64,000 nt of DNA from Escherichia phage FFH2, in sequence record KJ190158. One strand, given 5' to 3'. Position 1 is the first letter of the stretch. Each line of letters opens with the position of its first letter. The position numbers were made by a program, and so were the translations under genes. Below are positions 29,528 to 51,170 of the stretch, one piece after another. The notes beneath the pieces were generated by a model. It saw only the letters and a program-made list of their open reading frames with translations, was not told the origin of the DNA and did no database searches.

Positions 29528-30841
29528 TAAGTTCTTCTCTTTTCTTTTACCGAGTAATTCGGGTTTTCTGTTCTCTTCGGTTTGAAGGGGTATAGAGATA
29601 CACCTGAGTGAACAGGGTGAACAACCGAACATTTGGCTATGGCATTAGCATGGCGAAGCGGACGGGTGACGAAAGAGGGGCCGGAGGACACCAGTCACTG
29701 CCATATGATATATGGGTGATAACCTGAAGAGTCTGAATAAGTGTTTAAGTACCAGTCAGAGGAAAAGGTGAATGGTAGCCGAAGGGGGAGGGGGGTTTCT
29801 TGTATCTTTAATTTGTATATTATGTATACACTTGTAAACCAATCTCATCTGAATTTGTTTACCACACAAAGTGGATAGGGACAAATATTACCTATTAAAC
29901 TTGAATTATTTATAGAAATACCACAACACCACTTAAGTCTTTGATTTTACACACAAATCCTACAGATATTCACCCTCCATATTTAACATACCTGTAACAT
30001 ATTCCATACCCTACCTGACCGATCAATTCACCCAACTACATCCCCATATTTTCCCTGTCTGTACTACCCCTGCCCCGCCGGGAGTCCCGTCATATCTGGC
30101 TTTCCAGCAAATATCACACCCACAAATATCATTGCCTGAAGAGGGTTTCATCCCATAATACATGCCTTACCTGAAGAGCGCTTCATACACCACGTAAATT
30201 TTTTAATTGACCCCCTCCCCGCCGCCGGAGAGGTTGGCTTTTCCCACACAGACCTGAAGAGTCAGCCAGAAATATCTGAACAGGTCCAGCTATGCCACGA
30301 TTTTGTGCTTGTCCTACAGGAGTGCCTCCCTGTCAGGAGCCGGTAGCGACTGGAGTGCTGCCAGGCGGACGAAATGGGAATCATTCTCATTCTTATAACA
30401 ATTCTCAAATATCGAGGCAGTGAGGCAAATTAATAGGTGAGGCCGTTCACACAATGGCACAACATTTGCAACCTATCTTGTGGGAGTGAATGAGAATACC
30501 TATCATTGTGAGAATAGTTATCATTACGGGCAATTTAACATAATACCCATTATGCGCACCACTGGCGATCCATACAGGGATTGATAACATGGGTTACTGT
30601 TTACACACATAACAATTATATTTCTTACTATTTGTGTGGGATATAGTTAGCAGCCGATAGATTAGATATTGACCTGTAGACTTCCAACCGTCCAGACGTC
30701 TAAACGCCCACACAACAAGGGTTATACATACACAACTGAATGTAAACAGGGCCGCAAAAATGCTACCATACAAGCTTGTAAATTTTTCATGCAGCACTTG
30801 ACAAAGAGGAGGAAAACTTGTCTGACACTTTAGACACAATA

Positions 30842-30888
30842 GTGACATAATATGACATAATGGTGACACTGAACATAATTGACATGCC
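30842..30888. repeat. Tandem 10-bp iterons (G/A)TGACA(T/C)(A/T)AT
   Basis: gtgacataat-atgacataat-ggtgacactg-aacataattgacatgcc. Confidence 0.55.
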
Positions 30889-30992
30889 TGACTGTTTACA
30901 TAGCTAACTATTCATACAGAAATGATAAGCCATGCCATTCGTTTGCATGATAATAATTAACTTGTTTACAATAGATGACATAATATAAAAGC

Positions 30993-31025
30993 AGGGCAAC
31001 TATTAGAAGATCTATAGTTGCCTTG
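30993..31025. repeat. Near-perfect palindrome around GGCAACTAT / ATAGTTGCC
   Basis: agggcaactat-tagaagatc-tatagttgccttg; 9-mer recurs at 31052 and 31159. Confidence 0.55.
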
Positions 31026-31774
31026 CTTGTTATGTCATGATTAACTAAATACAAGGCAACTATGATCTGATTAATAGTTTGCAGACAAACTATCACGGGG
31101 GTGATGGTTACTGCTTTTATATTATGTCGCGACTCCGTCGCGCCATGCCATTCGTTTGCATAGTTGCCTTATTGTTACAGATAAAATAATTGTATTGTTA
31201 ATTATTTCTTATCTTTCTCTTAGTCATCTAATGATTCCAGTCAGTATAGTAATGTACAGTAAACATTAGACGACTAAAGATTTCTCTGTTTATTATAACT
31301 TACCGTGACAATTTCAGGCTGTTTACGAAAAATGTTGACACCTGGGCCGATTTATGTTATGCAGTTTACACGAATAATTATTTTATGCAGGTATTGACTA
31401 TTCCGTTATTCTATGGTTGGAATAAATACTTAGCAGACTATAGAATGGTGAGCGTACGTAAATTCTGAGATCTGGCGGCTATAGTTATACTCGATTTTTC
31501 ACGTAGAACACGCTTTTGTTAGTGTGTAAGTGTATGACTTATAAAGATTTTTAGTTGTTGACAAGATATTGAAGATGTGCATCAGGTTAAATTTTGTGCA
31601 ATAGCGGCATTACGTGCAATTTTGAGAGAGAAAACGGGTAAAAATGGCCTTGCTATCACACAATGAAAAATTATGCAATAGTTATTTTACATGTATGTTT
31701 GTACAGTGTGTGGGATTGATGGCTAGTCAATTATTCCACTTGCCAGGCTGGGCCGTTTGTGGTAGGAGAAATAC

Positions 31775-31806
31775 AGACAAAAAGAAAGGGGCCTTTTAAA
31801 GCCCCT
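31775..31806 (-). terminator. Intrinsic terminator for leftward cluster
   Basis: aggggc..gcccct stem followed on minus strand by ttctttttg. Confidence 0.55.
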
Positions 31807-32714: not shown

Positions 32715-32987
32715 TTACTTATGGCGGCAGAATTCAAGCGTTTTTAATTGATAATCTTCCTCAGCCTGGAGTACTACCGCCTCGATCATTTCGTTGGCAT
32801 TGTTAAAGCCATAACCTTTAGCGAACTCATCCGCGCCACCTTCGTGATCATGTTCTGCGTTCATCGCTTCCACAAAATGGAATTCCAAATTGTTGAGGTA
32901 GGGGCTTGATGTTCCGTCCTCTTTTTCGATGAGATCCCAGATAGCATTAAAACGTGATTCGACTTCTTGATTAATCCAGCTTGACAT
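32715..32987 (-). CDS. hypothetical acidic protein
   Basis: RBS agagaggaaaac. Confidence 0.5.
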   Translation of the reverse strand: MSSWINQEVESRFNAIWDLIEKEDGTSSPYLNNLEFHFVEAMNAEHDHEGGADEFAKGYGFNNANEMIEAVVLQAEEDYQLKTLEFCRHK

Positions 32988-33198
32988 AATGTTTTCCTCT
33001 CTTCTGGTTGTTGTGTGGGCACTTTTGCCCCTTCAAGATAAATGTTACCCCACCCCCTGGCAGATGTCAACGGTTTTTATAGTTCTTATATGACAGGCAG
33101 GCCCGGTGATTGTCTCCCCCCGTCGCCAGGTGCCTGCCGTTGAATAAGTATAACAAAAAACAGGACCATTGCAAGCCCTGTTTTCTAGTCAATAAGGA

Positions 33199-41755: not shown

Positions 41756-41953
41756 TTATTTTTTATTAAACCAGTGATTGATCTGACCTTTTGTCAGGGC
41801 GCAACGATTAAGTTGGTGCCGGGTATAGCTCTGACCGCGACGGAATTTATAAAGGCCTTGCCCGTTGTTGATGGTTACGTCCACCTGGCAAACCATTTGA
41901 TCGGTGACCACCTGGCGAGCGTTGCGACGTACTTTGATTCCGTAGGCGTTCAT
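41756..41953 (-). CDS. hypothetical basic protein
   Basis: RBS gagaggataaaaaatc. Confidence 0.45.
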   Translation of the reverse strand: MNAYGIKVRRNARQVVTDQMVCQVDVTINNGQGLYKFRRGQSYTRHQLNRCALTKGQINHWFNKK

Positions 41954-42038
41954 GATTTTTTATCCTCTCTGTTAATTAGTGTGGTGTTGTTCACCTTGCG
42001 AGGATAAGAATAACAAGAACTGTCCGAGCTGTCAACTA

Positions 42039-42215
42039 TTAGTTAAAATTATTTTTTGGGCGGAATTCTCCAGCCGCCGCCCCTGCCAGGTTAACCATCA
42101 TTTTTTCGTACTCTTCTTTATATTCCAACGCTCCCGCTATAGCCTTTTCAACCAGGGCGATAGCCTCAGCGTCATTAATAGCTACATTTTCCAGGGGGAT
42201 CATATTACCTTTCAT
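42039..42215 (-). CDS. hypothetical small protein (58 aa)
   Basis: Strong RBS agaggaggtacaaaa then ATG; first gene downstream of repeat region on minus strand. Confidence 0.45.
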   Translation of the reverse strand: MKGNMIPLENVAINDAEAIALVEKAIAGALEYKEEYEKMMVNLAGAAAGEFRPKNNFN

Positions 42216-42474
42216 TTTTGTACCTCCTCTTCAATTGTTACCTATCCTATAGCATAGGCCCACCAGGTTTACAAGCCTTCATTCTCTCCTACCTGGTCAG
42301 TTAGGTCCTGCCAGGCTGGCCCCACTAGGTTGCAGCGGTTAGTGCATCAGGTTAGAAAAATTTTTTGAAAAGTGTTGACAGCGGCCCCGCCAGGTGGCAC
42401 AATATACCTATCGAAAGGACGGCAGGCACCGGTGACGGGGGAGACAACCACCGGGGATGGGCGCTGCATAAAAT

Positions 42475-42497
42475 GAGAACGGTTATCATTATCATTT
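42475..42497. promoter_or_regulatory. Fur-box-like site
   Basis: Reverse complement aaatgataatgataaccgttctc matches GATAATGATAATCATTATC at about 16 of 19. Confidence 0.4.
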
Positions 42498-42610
42498 AAA
42501 AATTTATGCAAAAAATCCTTGCTTTCTTTGTCCTGTGTGATACTATAATAACAAGCCGGGGCAACAGGGGCCGGGAGACAATCACCGGGCCTGCCCGTTA
42601 TTCTGCAAAC

Positions 42611-42627
42611 GAGAATGATTATCATTC
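42611..42627. promoter_or_regulatory. Fur-box-like site
   Basis: gagaatgattatcattc / rc gaatgataatcattctc matches Fur consensus at about 15 of 16. Confidence 0.4.
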
Positions 42628-43231
42628 AAAATTCTAAATGAGAACTCCTCGCATTTAATAAATTTAATTAGCACGCTAATTACACTCCGTAACAATTTAC
42701 TATAAAATAGTATCCACTAAAATATTCCCATATAGAAATTTTAAAAATCCATTTCTGAAAACGAAAAATCGATTTCGTCCCTAAAAATTTCAGGCCTAGA
42801 TCCGGAACGATTTCCAGAAAATCCGATTCAGAAAACGAAAAACAGATCGAGTACTGAGAAATTTATCGAGAAAAATTTTCAGAAAATCCAAGCCCTGAAA
42901 TGAAAAGTAGATCGAGTACCTGGAAAGCTGCACCGCAACTTCAAGATAGTGGTTAGATTGTTACCATAGAAGGTCAAGGGTAAGTGGAGGAAGTTCTAGT
43001 AGAGGGAGGTTAGCATGTGTGGGAAATCTATAATGGTGGCCTGGAATATAGTGCAAACGATAGGATGAGTTATTCAGCTTGTCGCGCCTACTCTGAAAAA
43101 TCCATTTTAGTTTTCGATCCATTTTCTGATTTTCTAAGAATTTTAAAATATCCGGCCCGGTGAAATATCAAAAGGAGGAAATCCATTTTAGAAATCCCCC
43201 TTATACTTGATATGCCAGGAATTTTCAAGTA

Positions 43232-43561
43232 TCAGCTGTCTTTGTTTTTAGGTTTGTACATGCGCAGAGGTATGGTCTTTGTAACATTCCATTTCCTCAA
43301 CCCTTCCCAGCTCCAGTTGTGGGCGTGATACCCGGTTATGCATGCACTGCTGGCGTGATCATAAGCATAAGAGAACGCTATGTGCACCAGGTGGGGCCAG
43401 TCCTTCCACGGCTGTGGACCGTAAGCCTTTCTCCAACACCGACACAAACTAATTGTCTCAAGAATAGGGAGAATAACAATTCCATATACCACCACCAGAA
43501 TGGTCAGTGCAATGATTGTCAGGAACACATACCCTGCAGTTGAAATGATGATCTCTGTCAT
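43232..43561 (-). CDS. Membrane protein
   Basis: N-terminal TM segments IIISTAGYVFLTIIALTILVVVYGIVILPIL. Confidence 0.5.
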   Translation of the reverse strand: MTEIIISTAGYVFLTIIALTILVVVYGIVILPILETISLCRCWRKAYGPQPWKDWPHLVHIAFSYAYDHASSACITGYHAHNWSWEGLRKWNVTKTIPLRMYKPKNKDS

Positions 43562-43761
43562 TTGTCGTCCCCTTTCTTACGAATATAGATGTGAGAGCCT
43601 GCCTGTATATAAATTTCTCGACCATCCTCTGCAAAGATATGAAATACACGATCACCTTCGTACTCGATACGAGATATCTTCATAATGGTCTTTCCACCTG
43701 GGATACGGATCTCGTCCCCCACAGCGATGTTCCATGCAGATTTAAGCTTAAACATCTGCAC
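43558..43761 (-). CDS. hypothetical protein
   Basis: RBS aaggaggg. Confidence 0.45.
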   Translation of the reverse strand: MQMFKLKSAWNIAVGDEIRIPGGKTIMKISRIEYEGDRVFHIFAEDGREIYIQAGSHIYIRKKGDDK

Positions 43762-50856: not shown

Positions 50857-51170
50857 TGATCGGTCTCCTTCTTGTTAAGTCTGAATACTGCAATAATAAC
50901 ATTCCCAAGGTGCAGTGTCAAATCATTTCCAAGATACCACAACATTCCACGGTCATCTTTGATGAAAGGGTAACAATCTGGTGCCTTCCAGACATTGTAC
51001 ACTTTCCCAACCTGAAAGAAATCAGGCCCTGTTGGGATTTTGGTACCAGGCCACACTTGAGATACCTGAACACACTCCACCTGCATAATAACAGGGATAG
51101 TCATAGATGTAAATGTTTTTGTTGGTTCTACTACCATAAAAGTCTCCTCTTTGCTCAACAACACTTCCAT
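50853..51170 (-). CDS. hypothetical protein
   Basis: ORF-track GTG start 51227 would overlap polymerase exon 2; ATG 51170 chosen, no clear RBS. Confidence 0.3.
   Translation of the reverse strand: MEVLLSKEETFMVVEPTKTFTSMTIPVIMQVECVQVSQVWPGTKIPTGPDFFQVGKVYNVWKAPDCYPFIKDDRGMLWYLGNDLTLHLGNVIIAVFRLNKKETDQ

Follow-up and report, generated by a model that had tools for sequence, protein, structure and literature searches.

Iteron-type replication origins are known from phage lambda (ori), P1 (oriR), T4 (oriE) and the iteron plasmids. In E. coli, the iron repressor Fur acts at operators built on a 19-bp Fur box (GATAATGATAATCATTATC, or TGATAATnATTATCA in the 7-1-7 reading), its repression usually works by promoter occlusion, and multicopy Fur boxes are well known to titrate Fur (FURTA assay). 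Virulent cyanophages carry sites for host transcription factors (NtcA and PhoB boxes) in the promoters of phage genes, and among the small hairpins found just past early promoters, boxB of phage P22 has GACAA as its loop. The only experimental data on a homologue of the locus described here come from Pseudomonas phage PAK_P3, in the intergenic region from gp79/gp80 to gp81 (about 50.2-51.0 kb). According to ONT-cappable-seq, sense transcripts end within it at T021 (50279, beside the AAATATC motifs) and at T022 (50625, in the repeat nearest the hairpin), neither of which was classed as intrinsic; the farthest 3′ ends (50872 and 50897) fall at the hairpin and promoter, and sense transcription next starts at 51049. 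For the antisense promoter, the published data list no start site, and long transcripts into the repeats were therefore not seen in PAK_P3, although the method, by the authors' account, misses RNAs under about 80 nt. We rejected sRNA1 and sRNA2 of that phage as hub RNAs, as both lie elsewhere in its genome (85-86 kb), and found no discussion of the homologous region as a unit in the PAK_P3 literature searched.

We analyzed a window of 64,000 nt from Escherichia phage FFH2 (KJ190158), an rV5-like Vequintavirus (98% to EdH4), which contains a gene-free hub (Table 1). The hub appears to be a conserved control region that is undescribed so far, as we found neither Fur boxes nor repeats nor an origin described in the literature searched on these phages. 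Most likely, it would be a non-coding protein-DNA hub that ends the upstream leftward early transcription unit and acts as an iteron-type replication origin. The full model, in which this origin and transcription boundary would be guarded by outward promoters and host Fur, is our best explanation and is held tentatively, at somewhat less than an even chance.

Table 1. Features of the hub and related elements elsewhere in the window
Feature	Position	Strand	Details
Gene-free hub	42216-43231		Anatomy on + strand, opposing the flanking leftward genes; best read as non-coding
Predicted promoter P1	42375-42403	+	TTGACA, 17 nt, TG-CACAAT; consensus scan 10/12 with TG
Hairpin module 1	42422-42467	+	Begins ~12 nt past predicted P1 start; core GAGACAACCACCG at 42441-42453
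Fur-like box 1 (AATGAGAACGGTTATCATT, 42472)	42472-42496		Overlapping 19-mers 42472-42490 and 42478-42496, 6 bp offset
Predicted promoter P2	42519-42546	+	TTGCTT, 16 nt, TG-n-TACTAT (extended -10); read from sequence
Hairpin module 2	42559-42596	+	Core GAGACAATCACCG at 42575-42587, then CTGCCCG and TTATTCTG
Fur-like box 2 (AACGAGAATGATTATCATT, 42608)	42608-42632		25.0 bits, best in whole window; overlapping site 6 bp on (42614)
AT-rich tract	42626-42760		24-29% G+C (composition profile; also given for 42600-42800)
Fur-like box 3, degenerate	42637-42655		13.3 bits; exactly 29 bp past box 2
Three long direct repeats (candidate iterons)	42726-42787, 42800-42861, 42865-42926	+	62 nt each
Variable spacer	42927-43090		G-rich on + strand; GC skew +0.35 to +0.63
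Right-hand conserved block	43094-43231		ATCCATTTT three times (43100, 43117, 43181); AAATATC twice (43146, 43163)
Candidate leftward promoter	TTGAAA 43227-43222, TATAAG 43204-43199	-	17-nt spacing; found by eye, not scan-listed
Third promoter-hairpin copy, outside hub	33090-33174	-	TTGCAA, 16 nt, TATACT, then hairpin with GGGAGACAATCACCGGG
Second Fur-like cluster, outside hub	30373-30525		Boxes 30373, 30489, 30507; 24.8, 16.4, 16.2 bits

Coding status and conservation of the hub

The initial annotation described the region as having no ORF. ORFs of up to 92 aa do occur in it mechanically, but their length and frame vary among near-identical phages (32, 70, 99, 84 and 43 aa), frameshifting indels break them in close relatives, where the reading frame is not kept, and they are missing from other genera; the hub is therefore best read as non-coding. 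GenBank records disagree, with different 'hypothetical proteins' annotated across it, and protein-coding genes were rejected on these grounds, so that the proteins annotated at the hub in many records are probably not genes. No tRNA or tmRNA was found by scanning the window, and permissive Rfam scans of the hub and of three relatives' loci gave no credible match, the sole and weak match (E 0.82) scoring 20.9 bits where the gathering score is 126. The neighboring genes belong only to families of unknown function, and the immediate neighbors carry no Pfam domain. A leftward promoter candidate at 42274-42246 is doubtful, as its -35 is deleted in four relatives.

The core of the hub (42350-42900) is 90-99% conserved in nine Vequintavirus genomes, and in slur16 it is nearly unchanged while the flanking sequence has diverged. 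The elements come in the same order in Seunavirus, Certrevirus, further enterobacterial lineages and the Pseudomonas Nankokuvirus (PAK_P3-like) phages, namely a promoter-hairpin, boxes (among enterobacterial phages), three repeats built on a TCGAG-type core, a spacer and AAATATC motifs; Phapecoctavirus keeps the promoter-hairpin, boxes and AAATATC motifs and has different repeats. Elsewhere, the (G/A)TCGAG-type core takes the form GATCGAG(A/T)AC three times in PVP-SE1, CGATCGAGACCC three times in DU_PP_I, and AAAATCTGTCGAGTACCT twice exactly, alongside a TCAGG variant, in PAK_P3-like phages, and each of the four other genera or lineages sharing the core has three repeat copies. The three tandem units of about 60 bp noticed at first are three 62-nt direct repeats (42726-42926) that, compared with related phages, are conserved across genera. 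Clusters of 2-4 AAATATC motifs lie at the same end of the hub in every lineage examined, PAK_P3 included. The genes flanking the hub show no homology between genera by blastp. The hairpin core and the TCGAGTACC-type repeat core have been kept all the way from Pseudomonas phages to coliphages, unlike the neighboring genes, a pattern that marks the hub as a cis-acting system older than these genera.

This conservation also bears on two other readings, in which the hub would hold the remnants of decayed genes or a DNA packaging (pac) recognition site, both of which we consider very improbable. Several annotators call ORFs at the hub, but decay is incompatible with 90-99% conservation and recurrence across families, and the ORFs are inconsistent in frame and length. 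Repeated protein-binding motifs are found at pac sites in general, and three public records begin in the hub or within about 300 bp of it; however, 3 of 247 record starts is the level of random linearization, with about 1.8 expected.

Predicted promoters, hairpin modules and Fur-like boxes

P1 and P2, predicted as host-type (sigma-70) promoters, both point rightward, against the flanking leftward genes. The TTGACA of P1, suspected from the start to be a rightward promoter, lies at 42375 in a conserved position; P1 is 97-99% conserved across nine Vequintavirus genomes and has CATAAT as its -10 hexamer in the metagenomic relative L017. P2, with a predicted start near 42553, falls under the consensus-scan threshold, and its -35 TTG, 16-nt spacer and TAnnnT-type -10 are retained in Seunavirus, Certrevirus and Phapecoctavirus with different spacer letters. 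A third rightward promoter listed by the scan (42696-42723) is doubtful, as its -35 varies among close relatives.

The two paired GC-rich and AT-rich modules reported initially are present, with small shifts in their coordinates. The GC-rich element GGGAGACAAYCACCGGG lies at 42439-42455 and 42573-42589, with a third copy on the minus strand at 33102-33118, and these 3 matches in the window compare with 0.12 expected (none of 100 shuffles reaches 3). The AT-rich element GAGAAYGRTTATCATT follows 36-38 nt later, start to start, at 42475-42490 and 42611-42626, and together with related sites at 30373 and 30510 amounts to 4 matches against 0.13 expected. Hairpin module 1 has a long imperfect hairpin as its minimum-energy fold, with a z-score of only -0.72, and module 2, with a z-score of -2.74, is the only part of the hub matched by BLAST in distant genera. 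The third copy (hairpin z -2.21; promoter listed by the scan at 33174-33147) has the sense orientation and precedes a second promoter and the gene at 32715-32987. In 16 aligned hairpin copies GAGACAA, CACCG and the next TG are invariant, and the remainder of TGCsCG is nearly so.

All three window hairpins, and the copies of every relative with upstream sequence, lie a few nucleotides past a sigma-70-type promoter on the transcribed strand. Judged by sequence and conservation, predicted promoter and hairpin are coupled, and the hairpin is a promoter-proximal module. The first proposal of a regulatory hub, origin or ncRNA locus holds as a conserved non-coding hub, but not with a free-standing hairpin. 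The promoter-hairpin also heads ordinary gene clusters, at 33090-33174 in the window and in L020, where a Fur-like box comes after it, and the module is therefore not origin-specific.

Transcription from P1 and P2 would give short hairpin RNAs, and a folded structure for them is plausible. RNAalifold, run on an automatic alignment of the 16 copies, returned no consensus structure, and covariation, which had been put forward as a check, was limited in a by-hand comparison to G-U-tolerant changes in the outer stem, with few true compensatory pairs. We consider it unlikely that these hairpins are nut/put-like antitermination signals, whose RNA would load a factor on RNA polymerase or act directly to give resistance to terminators. 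Their place just past promoters suits this idea, as does the predicted apex in Vequintavirus, where A-U and G-C pairs close a pentaloop of GACAA, the loop sequence of P22 boxB. The outer stem tolerates C/U opposite G (CGCUAU, CGUCAU and CGUUAU versus AUGGCG; AUAGCG/CGCUAU in DU_PP_I), and therefore fits RNA pairing on this strand only. However, the core GAGACAAACACC of most lineages breaks the closing pair of the pentaloop; the A-U-closed GACAA loop is predicted for T variants, and the A variants, which are commoner, lose its closing pair. The lack of an RNAalifold consensus and the few compensatory changes also count against antitermination, no boxA-like element was seen by eye and no N-like protein was identified, and the idea accounts for the hairpins only, neither for the boxes nor for the repeats.

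A small RNA gene with an intrinsic terminator was rejected, as the G+C-rich hairpin with a U run expected of one was not found. The scan gave no terminator-like sites in 41900-43600, and no classical terminator follows the window hairpins, whose tails are UUAUUCUG and AUAAAAUG (in relatives CGCUUUUC for PAK_P3-like phages and GUCUUUUG for L018). Similarity searches of E. coli genomes found neither copies of the module nor an obvious target, the plasmid collection yielded a single full-length match, to a phage genome entered there as a plasmid, and nearly all matches in a metagenome pattern scan were chance, with few extra true copies.

The label 'Fur box' given to the AT-rich elements survived a quantitative matrix test. 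With a matrix from other genera only, Fur-like box 1 scores 24.6 bits, compared with shuffle maxima of 11.7 bits on average and 21.3 at the highest. The six best matrix matches in the window all fall within its two ORF-free regions, the first of which holds the second Fur-like cluster. The consensus of 34 phage boxes is AATGAGAATsATTCTCATT, with TGA(G/T)AATnATT(C/A)TCA as core form, and the window boxes carry the inverted repeat of the 7-1-7 or 19-bp consensus. Applied to 50 kb of E. coli K-12, the phage-box matrix gave its five highest scores among 50,000 positions to sites in the regulatory regions of fepB-entC, fepD-entS and fepA-fes, with the best match outside those operators at 9.9-10.8 bits; the retrieval persists with a matrix lacking Vequintavirus sites, and when one matrix is applied to both, the phage boxes score above the natural operators of E. 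coli.

As motifs, these putative sites are equivalent to Fur operators, and host Fur probably binds them. No Fur homologue was found in any Vequintavirinae or Phapecoctavirus phage of the searched phage collection. Perfect TGATAAT/ATTATCA pairs are rare (1 of 34 boxes), and so another protein of related specificity could bind the boxes in place of Fur. The two half-sites vary independently; the AT-rich elements thus behave as putative protein-binding half-sites, and we rejected RNA hairpins or cruciforms as explanations for them. Across several genera, the boxes come in arrays of 3-5 at a fixed 29-bp spacing, which recurs in arrays of 3-4 boxes in L003, L005, L016 and L021, and overlapping sites offset by 6 bp are likewise found in L003, L016 and L021. 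PMC2189734 gives overlapping sites offset by 3 or 6 bp as typical of Fur site clusters.

A decoy function, in which boxes multiplied with the phage genome would titrate host Fur and turn host iron uptake on for iron-dependent nucleotide synthesis, or in which P1 and P2 would make trans-acting small RNAs, is improbable. The regular arrays in several genera, two clusters in the window, the scores above those of E. coli operators and the established titration effect all speak for titration, but in both contexts examined the boxes keep a fixed place directly after the promoter-hairpin, which suggests that they act in cis, and the Pseudomonas relatives have a box-free hub. Sequence conservation in the hairpin core is what a seed or protein-binding loop would show, but the small-RNA variant lacks both a module copy or obvious target in E. 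coli genomes and a classical terminator after the window hairpins.

Direct repeats, candidate origin and proposed transcription boundary

The direct repeats are 61-73% identical to the reference copy, with spacings of 74 and 65 nt and the consensus AGAAAATCC..GAAAACGAAAAA..GATCGAGTAC. Each of these three cores is present in two copies, all in the repeats and nowhere else in the window on either strand. The 10-bp palindrome reported at first, AAATCGATTT, is present at 42766-42775, inside the degenerate first repeat. The repeat region has no unusual RNA structure (z about 0 on both strands), and a ToxI or pseudo-ToxI-like repeat RNA as in phage phiTE was rejected given the identity and spacing of the units and the lack of a credible Rfam match; phiTE has its pseudo-ToxI at another locus, next to tRNA genes and a few genes upstream of that for the large terminase. 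The spacer that follows is only 78-84% conserved, with frameshifting indels. A motif initially listed in triplicate, AAATCCATTTT, is exact at 43098 and 43179, a few bases from the positions first given, but the copy at 42745 (AAATCCATTTC) has one mismatch; alone, the motif is weakly above chance (8 matches with at most one mismatch versus 3.6 expected).

Several traits of the hub are origin-like, namely three same-orientation repeats with unique cores, an adjoining AT-rich tract that is possibly a DNA-unwinding element, predicted promoters aimed into it, and no coding capacity. From these, we infer a replication role. DnaA boxes and GATC clusters are features of many origins, though not of all, and origins often have the gene of their initiator close by. 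No DnaA boxes (TTWTNCACA) were found in the hub, and no initiator gene was recognized next to it, the neighbors not being conserved between genera. Clustering of GATC (Dam) sites was rejected, as the hub has 4 in 1 kb and the window averages 5.6 per kb. GATC lies within the repeat core. Skew in the window tracks transcription direction only, as cited likewise from the rV5 paper.

In the mechanism that we propose, P1 and P2 would fire rightward, opposing the surrounding genes, and the first ~45 nt of each RNA would fold as a hairpin with the conserved GAGACAAWCACCG. Host Fur, bound just downstream of the promoter-hairpins, would end or modulate the P1 and P2 transcripts ahead of the AT-rich tract, or contribute to the architecture of the complex. 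The direct repeats and the AAATATC/ATCCATTTT motifs may be bound by one or several conserved phage proteins, which would melt the AT-rich tract so that replication starts and would also block gene-sense RNA polymerase coming from upstream.

The same elements could form a transcription boundary and an iron-responsive switch with no role in replication, which is possible although doubtful. Here, repeat-bound proteins and RNA polymerase at the opposing P1 and P2 would halt gene-sense early transcription, and Fur, according to the iron level, would keep P1 and P2 transcripts short or let antisense RNA run into the upstream genes. This would agree with the PAK_P3 sense transcripts that end at the repeats and at the hairpin and promoter, at sites not classed as intrinsic, and the promoter-hairpin heading normal gene clusters, with its Fur-like box in L020, suits a transcriptional module. 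Relative to the predicted P2 start, the boxes lie at about -81 to -57 and +55 to +103, and those downstream of the start, from about +57 to +100, have the geometry of a roadblock. However, none of the boxes overlaps any -35 or -10 element, and classical Fur repression is therefore inapplicable; nor does Fur usually act as a roadblock downstream. The homologous PAK_P3 promoter has no recorded long antisense RNA, and a switch leaves unexplained why long repeats with conserved cores and an AT-rich tract are retained from Pseudomonas phages to coliphages.

An origin joined to a boundary remains our preferred reading. A broader proposal, which is speculative and rather unlikely as a whole, is that in the large virulent myoviruses of Enterobacterales (the rV5, phi92, PVP-SE1 and phiTE groups), arrays of Fur sites may read or rewire the iron status of the host, coupled to an ancient origin and boundary hub that includes an undescribed promoter-proximal RNA element (GAGACAAWCACCG) common to PAK_P3-like phages.

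Significance and comparison with known systems

Phages of the rV5-like, phi92-like and PVP-SE1-like groups find wide use in therapy and biocontrol, and no replication origin or early control circuit was found described for them in the literature searched, for both of which the hub is a concrete, mappable candidate. Should Fur truly sit on the boxes, iron availability would be wired into infection by these phages; of all variables, iron is the one in which laboratory broth departs most from the gut or infected tissue.

The PAK_P3 region resembles the hub in its promoter-hairpin core (GAGACAAACACC), in having three repeats built on a TCGAGTACC-type core, in the AAATATC motifs and in its orientation against flanking genes, but it is G+C-rich, has no Fur-like boxes, and its repeats are short (18 bp at 35-bp spacing). 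With the nut (boxB) sites of lambda and P22 and the put RNAs of HK022, the modules have in common small hairpins just past early promoters in few copies per genome; however, the hairpins described here have no boxA or known N-like partner, the pentaloop is unconserved in most lineages, and conserved sequence runs well past the loop (CACCG....TGCsCG).

Like E. coli Fur operators, the phage sites are 7-1-7 inverted repeats with overlaps offset by 6 bp. They differ in favoring G as the fourth half-site base (GAGAAT, 65%), in being more symmetric and arranged in regular 29-bp arrays, and in lying, as putative sites in a virulent phage, downstream of promoters and not over them. The NtcA and PhoB boxes of cyanophages are likewise sites for a host nutrient-sensing regulator (here putatively Fur) in a lytic phage genome, but the regulator and nutrient are others, and the cyanophage sites lie in gene promoters, whereas those reported here form arrays in a gene-free hub. 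Compared with iteron-type origins, the candidate origin has no DnaA boxes, GATC cluster or identified initiator, and its repeats are unusually long (about 40-60 bp) with an irregular spacing of 65-74 bp; it shares with them several same-orientation repeats by an AT-rich tract in non-coding DNA, promoters toward the repeats, and strong conservation.

A conserved non-coding region among leftward genes

The hub (42216-43231) sits within a long series of small leftward early genes of unassigned function. The 1,051 bases around it match 247 phage records, best of all Escherichia phage EdH4 (98.3%; Vequintavirus, rV5-like). GC and AT skew track transcription direction over the window, and in the window-wide profile AT skew flips to the + strand in 42-43 kb only. 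The initial annotation described the region as free of ORFs; mechanical ORFs do exist, the longest reaching 92 aa, but their frames are inconsistent among relatives and the non-coding reading stands. When nine Vequintavirus genomes are aligned, single-base indels are seen to alter the length and frame of the right-hand ORFs (32, 70, 99, 84 and 43 aa), GenBank records annotate 0 to 3 "hypothetical proteins" in differing placements within the hub, and other genera keep the hairpin and boxes without any ORF spanning them. We therefore read the hub as non-coding. ORFs overlying its repeats, hairpins or boxes are probably not genes, and such "hypothetical proteins" are present in many public records. 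ORFs in such positions include PVP-SE1 gp202 (2615-2899 of its locus, L004), PAK_P3 gp80 (2859-3071 of L150) and, in the window, 42347-42625 and 42961-43122.

Across the nine genomes, 42350-42650 is 96-99% conserved, 42650-42900 is 90-97% and 43100-43230 is 92-98%, with a variable stretch (78-84%) at 42900-43100 and a deletion-prone one at 42250-42300. In phage slur16 the flanks have strongly diverged, but the core (42350-42900) has not. In distant genera (Phapecoctavirus, Seunavirus and Certrevirus; Klebsiella, Serratia, Erwinia and Pantoea phages), the BLAST match is limited to 42510-42671, which comprises P2 together with its hairpin and the first box, and is left unannotated in most records. 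No homology between genera was found by blastp for the hub-flanking genes, so the hub is better conserved than its neighbours. We also observed four CCWGG (Dcm-type) sites inside ~140 bp at 42260-42400, with short inverted repeats (GGCC..CCAGG/CCTGG..GGCC) in and around the promoter spacers; a similar inverted repeat surrounds the -10 in PAK_P3 promoters (published table).

Features of the hub and related loci
Feature	Position	Strand	Remarks
Genes flanking the hub	42039-42215 and 43232-43561	leftward	
P1	42375-42403	+	hairpin 42422-42467
P2	42519-42546	+	hairpin 42559-42596
Third module	33174-33090	minus	sense-oriented; promoter independently listed by scan
~95-nt conserved stretch	L004 (PVP-SE1) 2330-2430; L005 2320-2420; L003 2385-2470 (loci of Seunavirus, Certrevirus and Phapecoctavirus)		relatives only
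Repeats, window			GATCGAGTAC x2 and one degenerate copy
Repeats, PVP-SE1			GATCGAG(A/T)AC x3; inside annotated "gp202"
Repeats, DU_PP_I and L021 (a relative's locus)			CGATCGAGACCC x3
Repeats, L010 (a relative's locus)			TC(A/G)AGT variant x3
Repeats, PAK_P3-like Pseudomonas phages			AAAATCTGTCGAGTACCT, 35-bp spacing; third copy TCAGG

The promoter-hairpin module

The GC-rich 17-mer noticed at the outset has two copies in the hub and a third at 33102 on the minus strand (three against 0.12 expected), and the TTGACA at 42375 proved to be part of a promoter match (10/12). Among about 18 distinct copies of the module gathered from phage, IMG/VR and metagenome sets, every one with upstream sequence carries the core GAGACAAWCACCG ~25-45 nt 3' of a same-strand promoter of sigma-70 type, whose -35 starts with TTG and is separated by 16-17 nt from a TAnnnT-like -10. 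In 16 aligned copies GAGACAA and CACCG never vary, nor does the TG of the TGCsCG that comes after them; the other TGCsCG positions are invariant or nearly so. No copy was found among 5,426 E. coli genomes, nor did the module match Rfam. The third module (within 33090-33190, minus) lies directly 3' of an intrinsic-terminator-like hairpin (33187-33154) and directly 5' of a second promoter (33070-33042), so that two tandem promoters precede the gene at 32715-32987.

Single-sequence folding predicts a long imperfect hairpin (z of -2.7 and -2.2 for two copies, -0.7 for the third), and RNAalifold on an automatic alignment of 16 copies gave no consensus structure. Aligned by hand, AUGGCG of the outer stem faces CGCUAU, CGUCAU or CGUUAU and AUAGCG faces CGCUAU, indicating that C/U changes are tolerated opposite G; there is also one A-U to G-C switch. 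These changes fit RNA pairing on the promoter's strand; the opposite strand would acquire A-C mismatches. As true compensatory changes are few, the fold is plausible but not proven.

The promoter-hairpin is also present in L018, a 93.7-kb IMG/VR contig of a lineage that matches nothing in the GenBank phage collection; there, ~75-nt repeats peculiar to it (AGAAATCCG..ATCTGAAA..CGTTTGTAATTT) come immediately after the hairpin, and Fur-like boxes are absent. Where the window has module 1, Seunavirus, Certrevirus and Phapecoctavirus instead carry another, highly conserved sequence of ~95 nt (..GCCACCCCACGGCGAAAAGGCGGGGCUAAC..GGAAGGUGGAUCGCCGGUAG..), preceded by a promoter of its own; the sequence looks like a structured RNA, with no Rfam match and no copy in the window.

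Fur-like boxes, repeats and the AT-rich tract

The AT-rich 16-mer follows each hub copy of the GC-rich element, and two related sites lie at 30.4-30.5 kb, making four matches in the window against 0.13 expected. From 34 distinct boxes at eleven loci we derived the consensus AATGAGAATsATTCTCATT; written as a 7-1-7 repeat, the phage box is TGA(G/T)AATnATT(C/A)TCA and the Fur consensus TGATAATnATTATCA. A matrix from the phage boxes was run over 50 kb of E. coli K-12 sequence surrounding the enterobactin cluster. Its five best positions were all in promoter regions that are divergent and regulated by Fur, namely those of fepB-entC (three positions), fepD-entS and fepA-fes, which sum to ~730 bp; the best match outside them reached 9.9 bits. 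A matrix from non-Vequintavirus genera alone gave the same E. coli outcome, and its six best window sites (42608, 30373, 42472, 30489, 30507 and 42637) all lie in the two ORF-free regions, three of them outscoring all 200 shuffles. The retrieval of E. coli Fur operators bears out the Fur-box label of the initial annotation at the motif level.

Strong boxes have a second site at a 6-bp offset, a known hallmark of Fur clusters according to PMC2189734. Half-site pairs (G/C 13, G/A 12, T/C 7, T/A 1) show that the two halves vary independently, as protein half-sites do, and a hairpin identity for the boxes was rejected. Other genera have arrays of 3-5 boxes spaced exactly 29 bp apart, and window boxes 2 and 3 share this spacing; the hubs of Pseudomonas relatives are entirely without boxes. 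In the phage collection searched, no Fur homologue was found encoded by a Vequintavirinae or Phapecoctavirus phage. We infer that the boxes bind Fur, presumably that of the host, with two main reservations: the GAGAAT preference and the location of the boxes downstream of promoters, not over them.

The other ORF-free region (29700-31800), between convergent gene blocks, has its own Fur-like cluster (30373, 30489, 30507) and is repeat-rich, with TGACATAAT-type motifs, inverted repeats around 30977-31177 and a 20-nt sequence, GCCATGCCATTCGTTTGCAT, duplicated without mismatch at 30929 and 31142. The numbering of the EdH4 record begins inside this region.

The tandem units reported earlier are three 62-nt direct repeats (42726, 42800 and 42865), whose cores GATCGAGTAC, GAAAACGAAAAA and AGAAAATCC are absent from the rest of the window. 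A comparison of relatives, which the initial annotation had proposed, revealed three same-orientation repeats with a common core, downstream of the boxes or their position, in each of five lineages, Pseudomonas phages included. The core also recurs several times in L009, a contig of another Vequintavirus-like lineage, and Phapecoctavirus has different, A/T-rich repeats. In L009, L011 and L060 (136-140 kb contigs of that lineage), four AATAGTAACGCACGGTGATTAATAGTTAC-like repeats come next after the hairpin and a single Fur-like box, resembling sequences of the window's other ORF-free region (about 30990-31110), and TCGAG-type repeats come after these. G+C drops to 24-29% between boxes and repeats, and 2-4 AAATATC motifs lie at the far end beside the upstream gene in every lineage examined. 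Of three reported copies of AAATCCATTTT, only those at 43098 and 43179 are exact, and the motif is weakly above chance. RNA folding of the repeat region showed nothing unusual, and neither DnaA boxes nor GATC clustering were found in the hub.

Transcription boundary in PAK_P3, possible origin and known systems

An 86-kb IMG/VR contig belongs to Nankokuvirus. In PAK_P3 the hub lies between gp79/gp80 and gp81 and is also oriented against the genes. According to published ONT-cappable-seq tables, PAK_P3 gene-sense units end at T021 (50279), beside AAATATC motifs, and at T022 (50625), on the hairpin-proximal repeat; the tables class neither end as intrinsic. The farthest sense 3' ends (50872, 50897) coincide with the hairpin and its promoter, and sense transcription next starts at 51049. 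For the antisense promoter the tables give no start site; the method, by its authors' account, misses RNAs below ~80 nt. Because sense ends fall inside the hub and an antisense start is unlisted, the PAK_P3 hub is a real transcription boundary, and the RNA of its promoter, if any, is short or rare. A purely transcriptional boundary with an iron switch is a tentative reading of the whole, nearly as likely as the origin proposed below, and has in its favor that the promoter-hairpin is found at the start of ordinary gene clusters too (at 33.1 kb in the window), followed in L020, another relative's locus, by a Fur-like box.

The most economical reading of the ordered layout across families is a site acting in cis at which protein and DNA assemble, comprising promoter-hairpin, host-factor sites, AT-rich tract, repeats and a second motif block. 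Tentatively, we propose an origin of the iteron type that would at the same time be a transcription boundary; in it P1 and P2 would furnish short hairpin-capped RNAs and local opening, and host Fur would lie between P1/P2 and the AT-rich tract. A role as Fur decoy or small-RNA locus is less likely, but compatible with this origin reading.

The rV5 genome paper draws a "non-coding" box without comment and did not locate the origin by skew analysis, the Certrevirus paper gives only sigma-70-like early promoters, and our literature searches on these phages returned nothing relevant on Fur boxes, repeats or origins. That the hairpin acts like a nut site is likewise less likely, but compatible with the origin reading: the predicted apex of the Vequintavirus hairpins is a GACAA pentaloop, as in P22 boxB, although the W position is A in most lineages, so that the pair closing the pentaloop is gone. 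The components of the hub are of known kinds, but no description appears to exist of their combination, of the hairpin motif or of Fur arrays in virulent phages.
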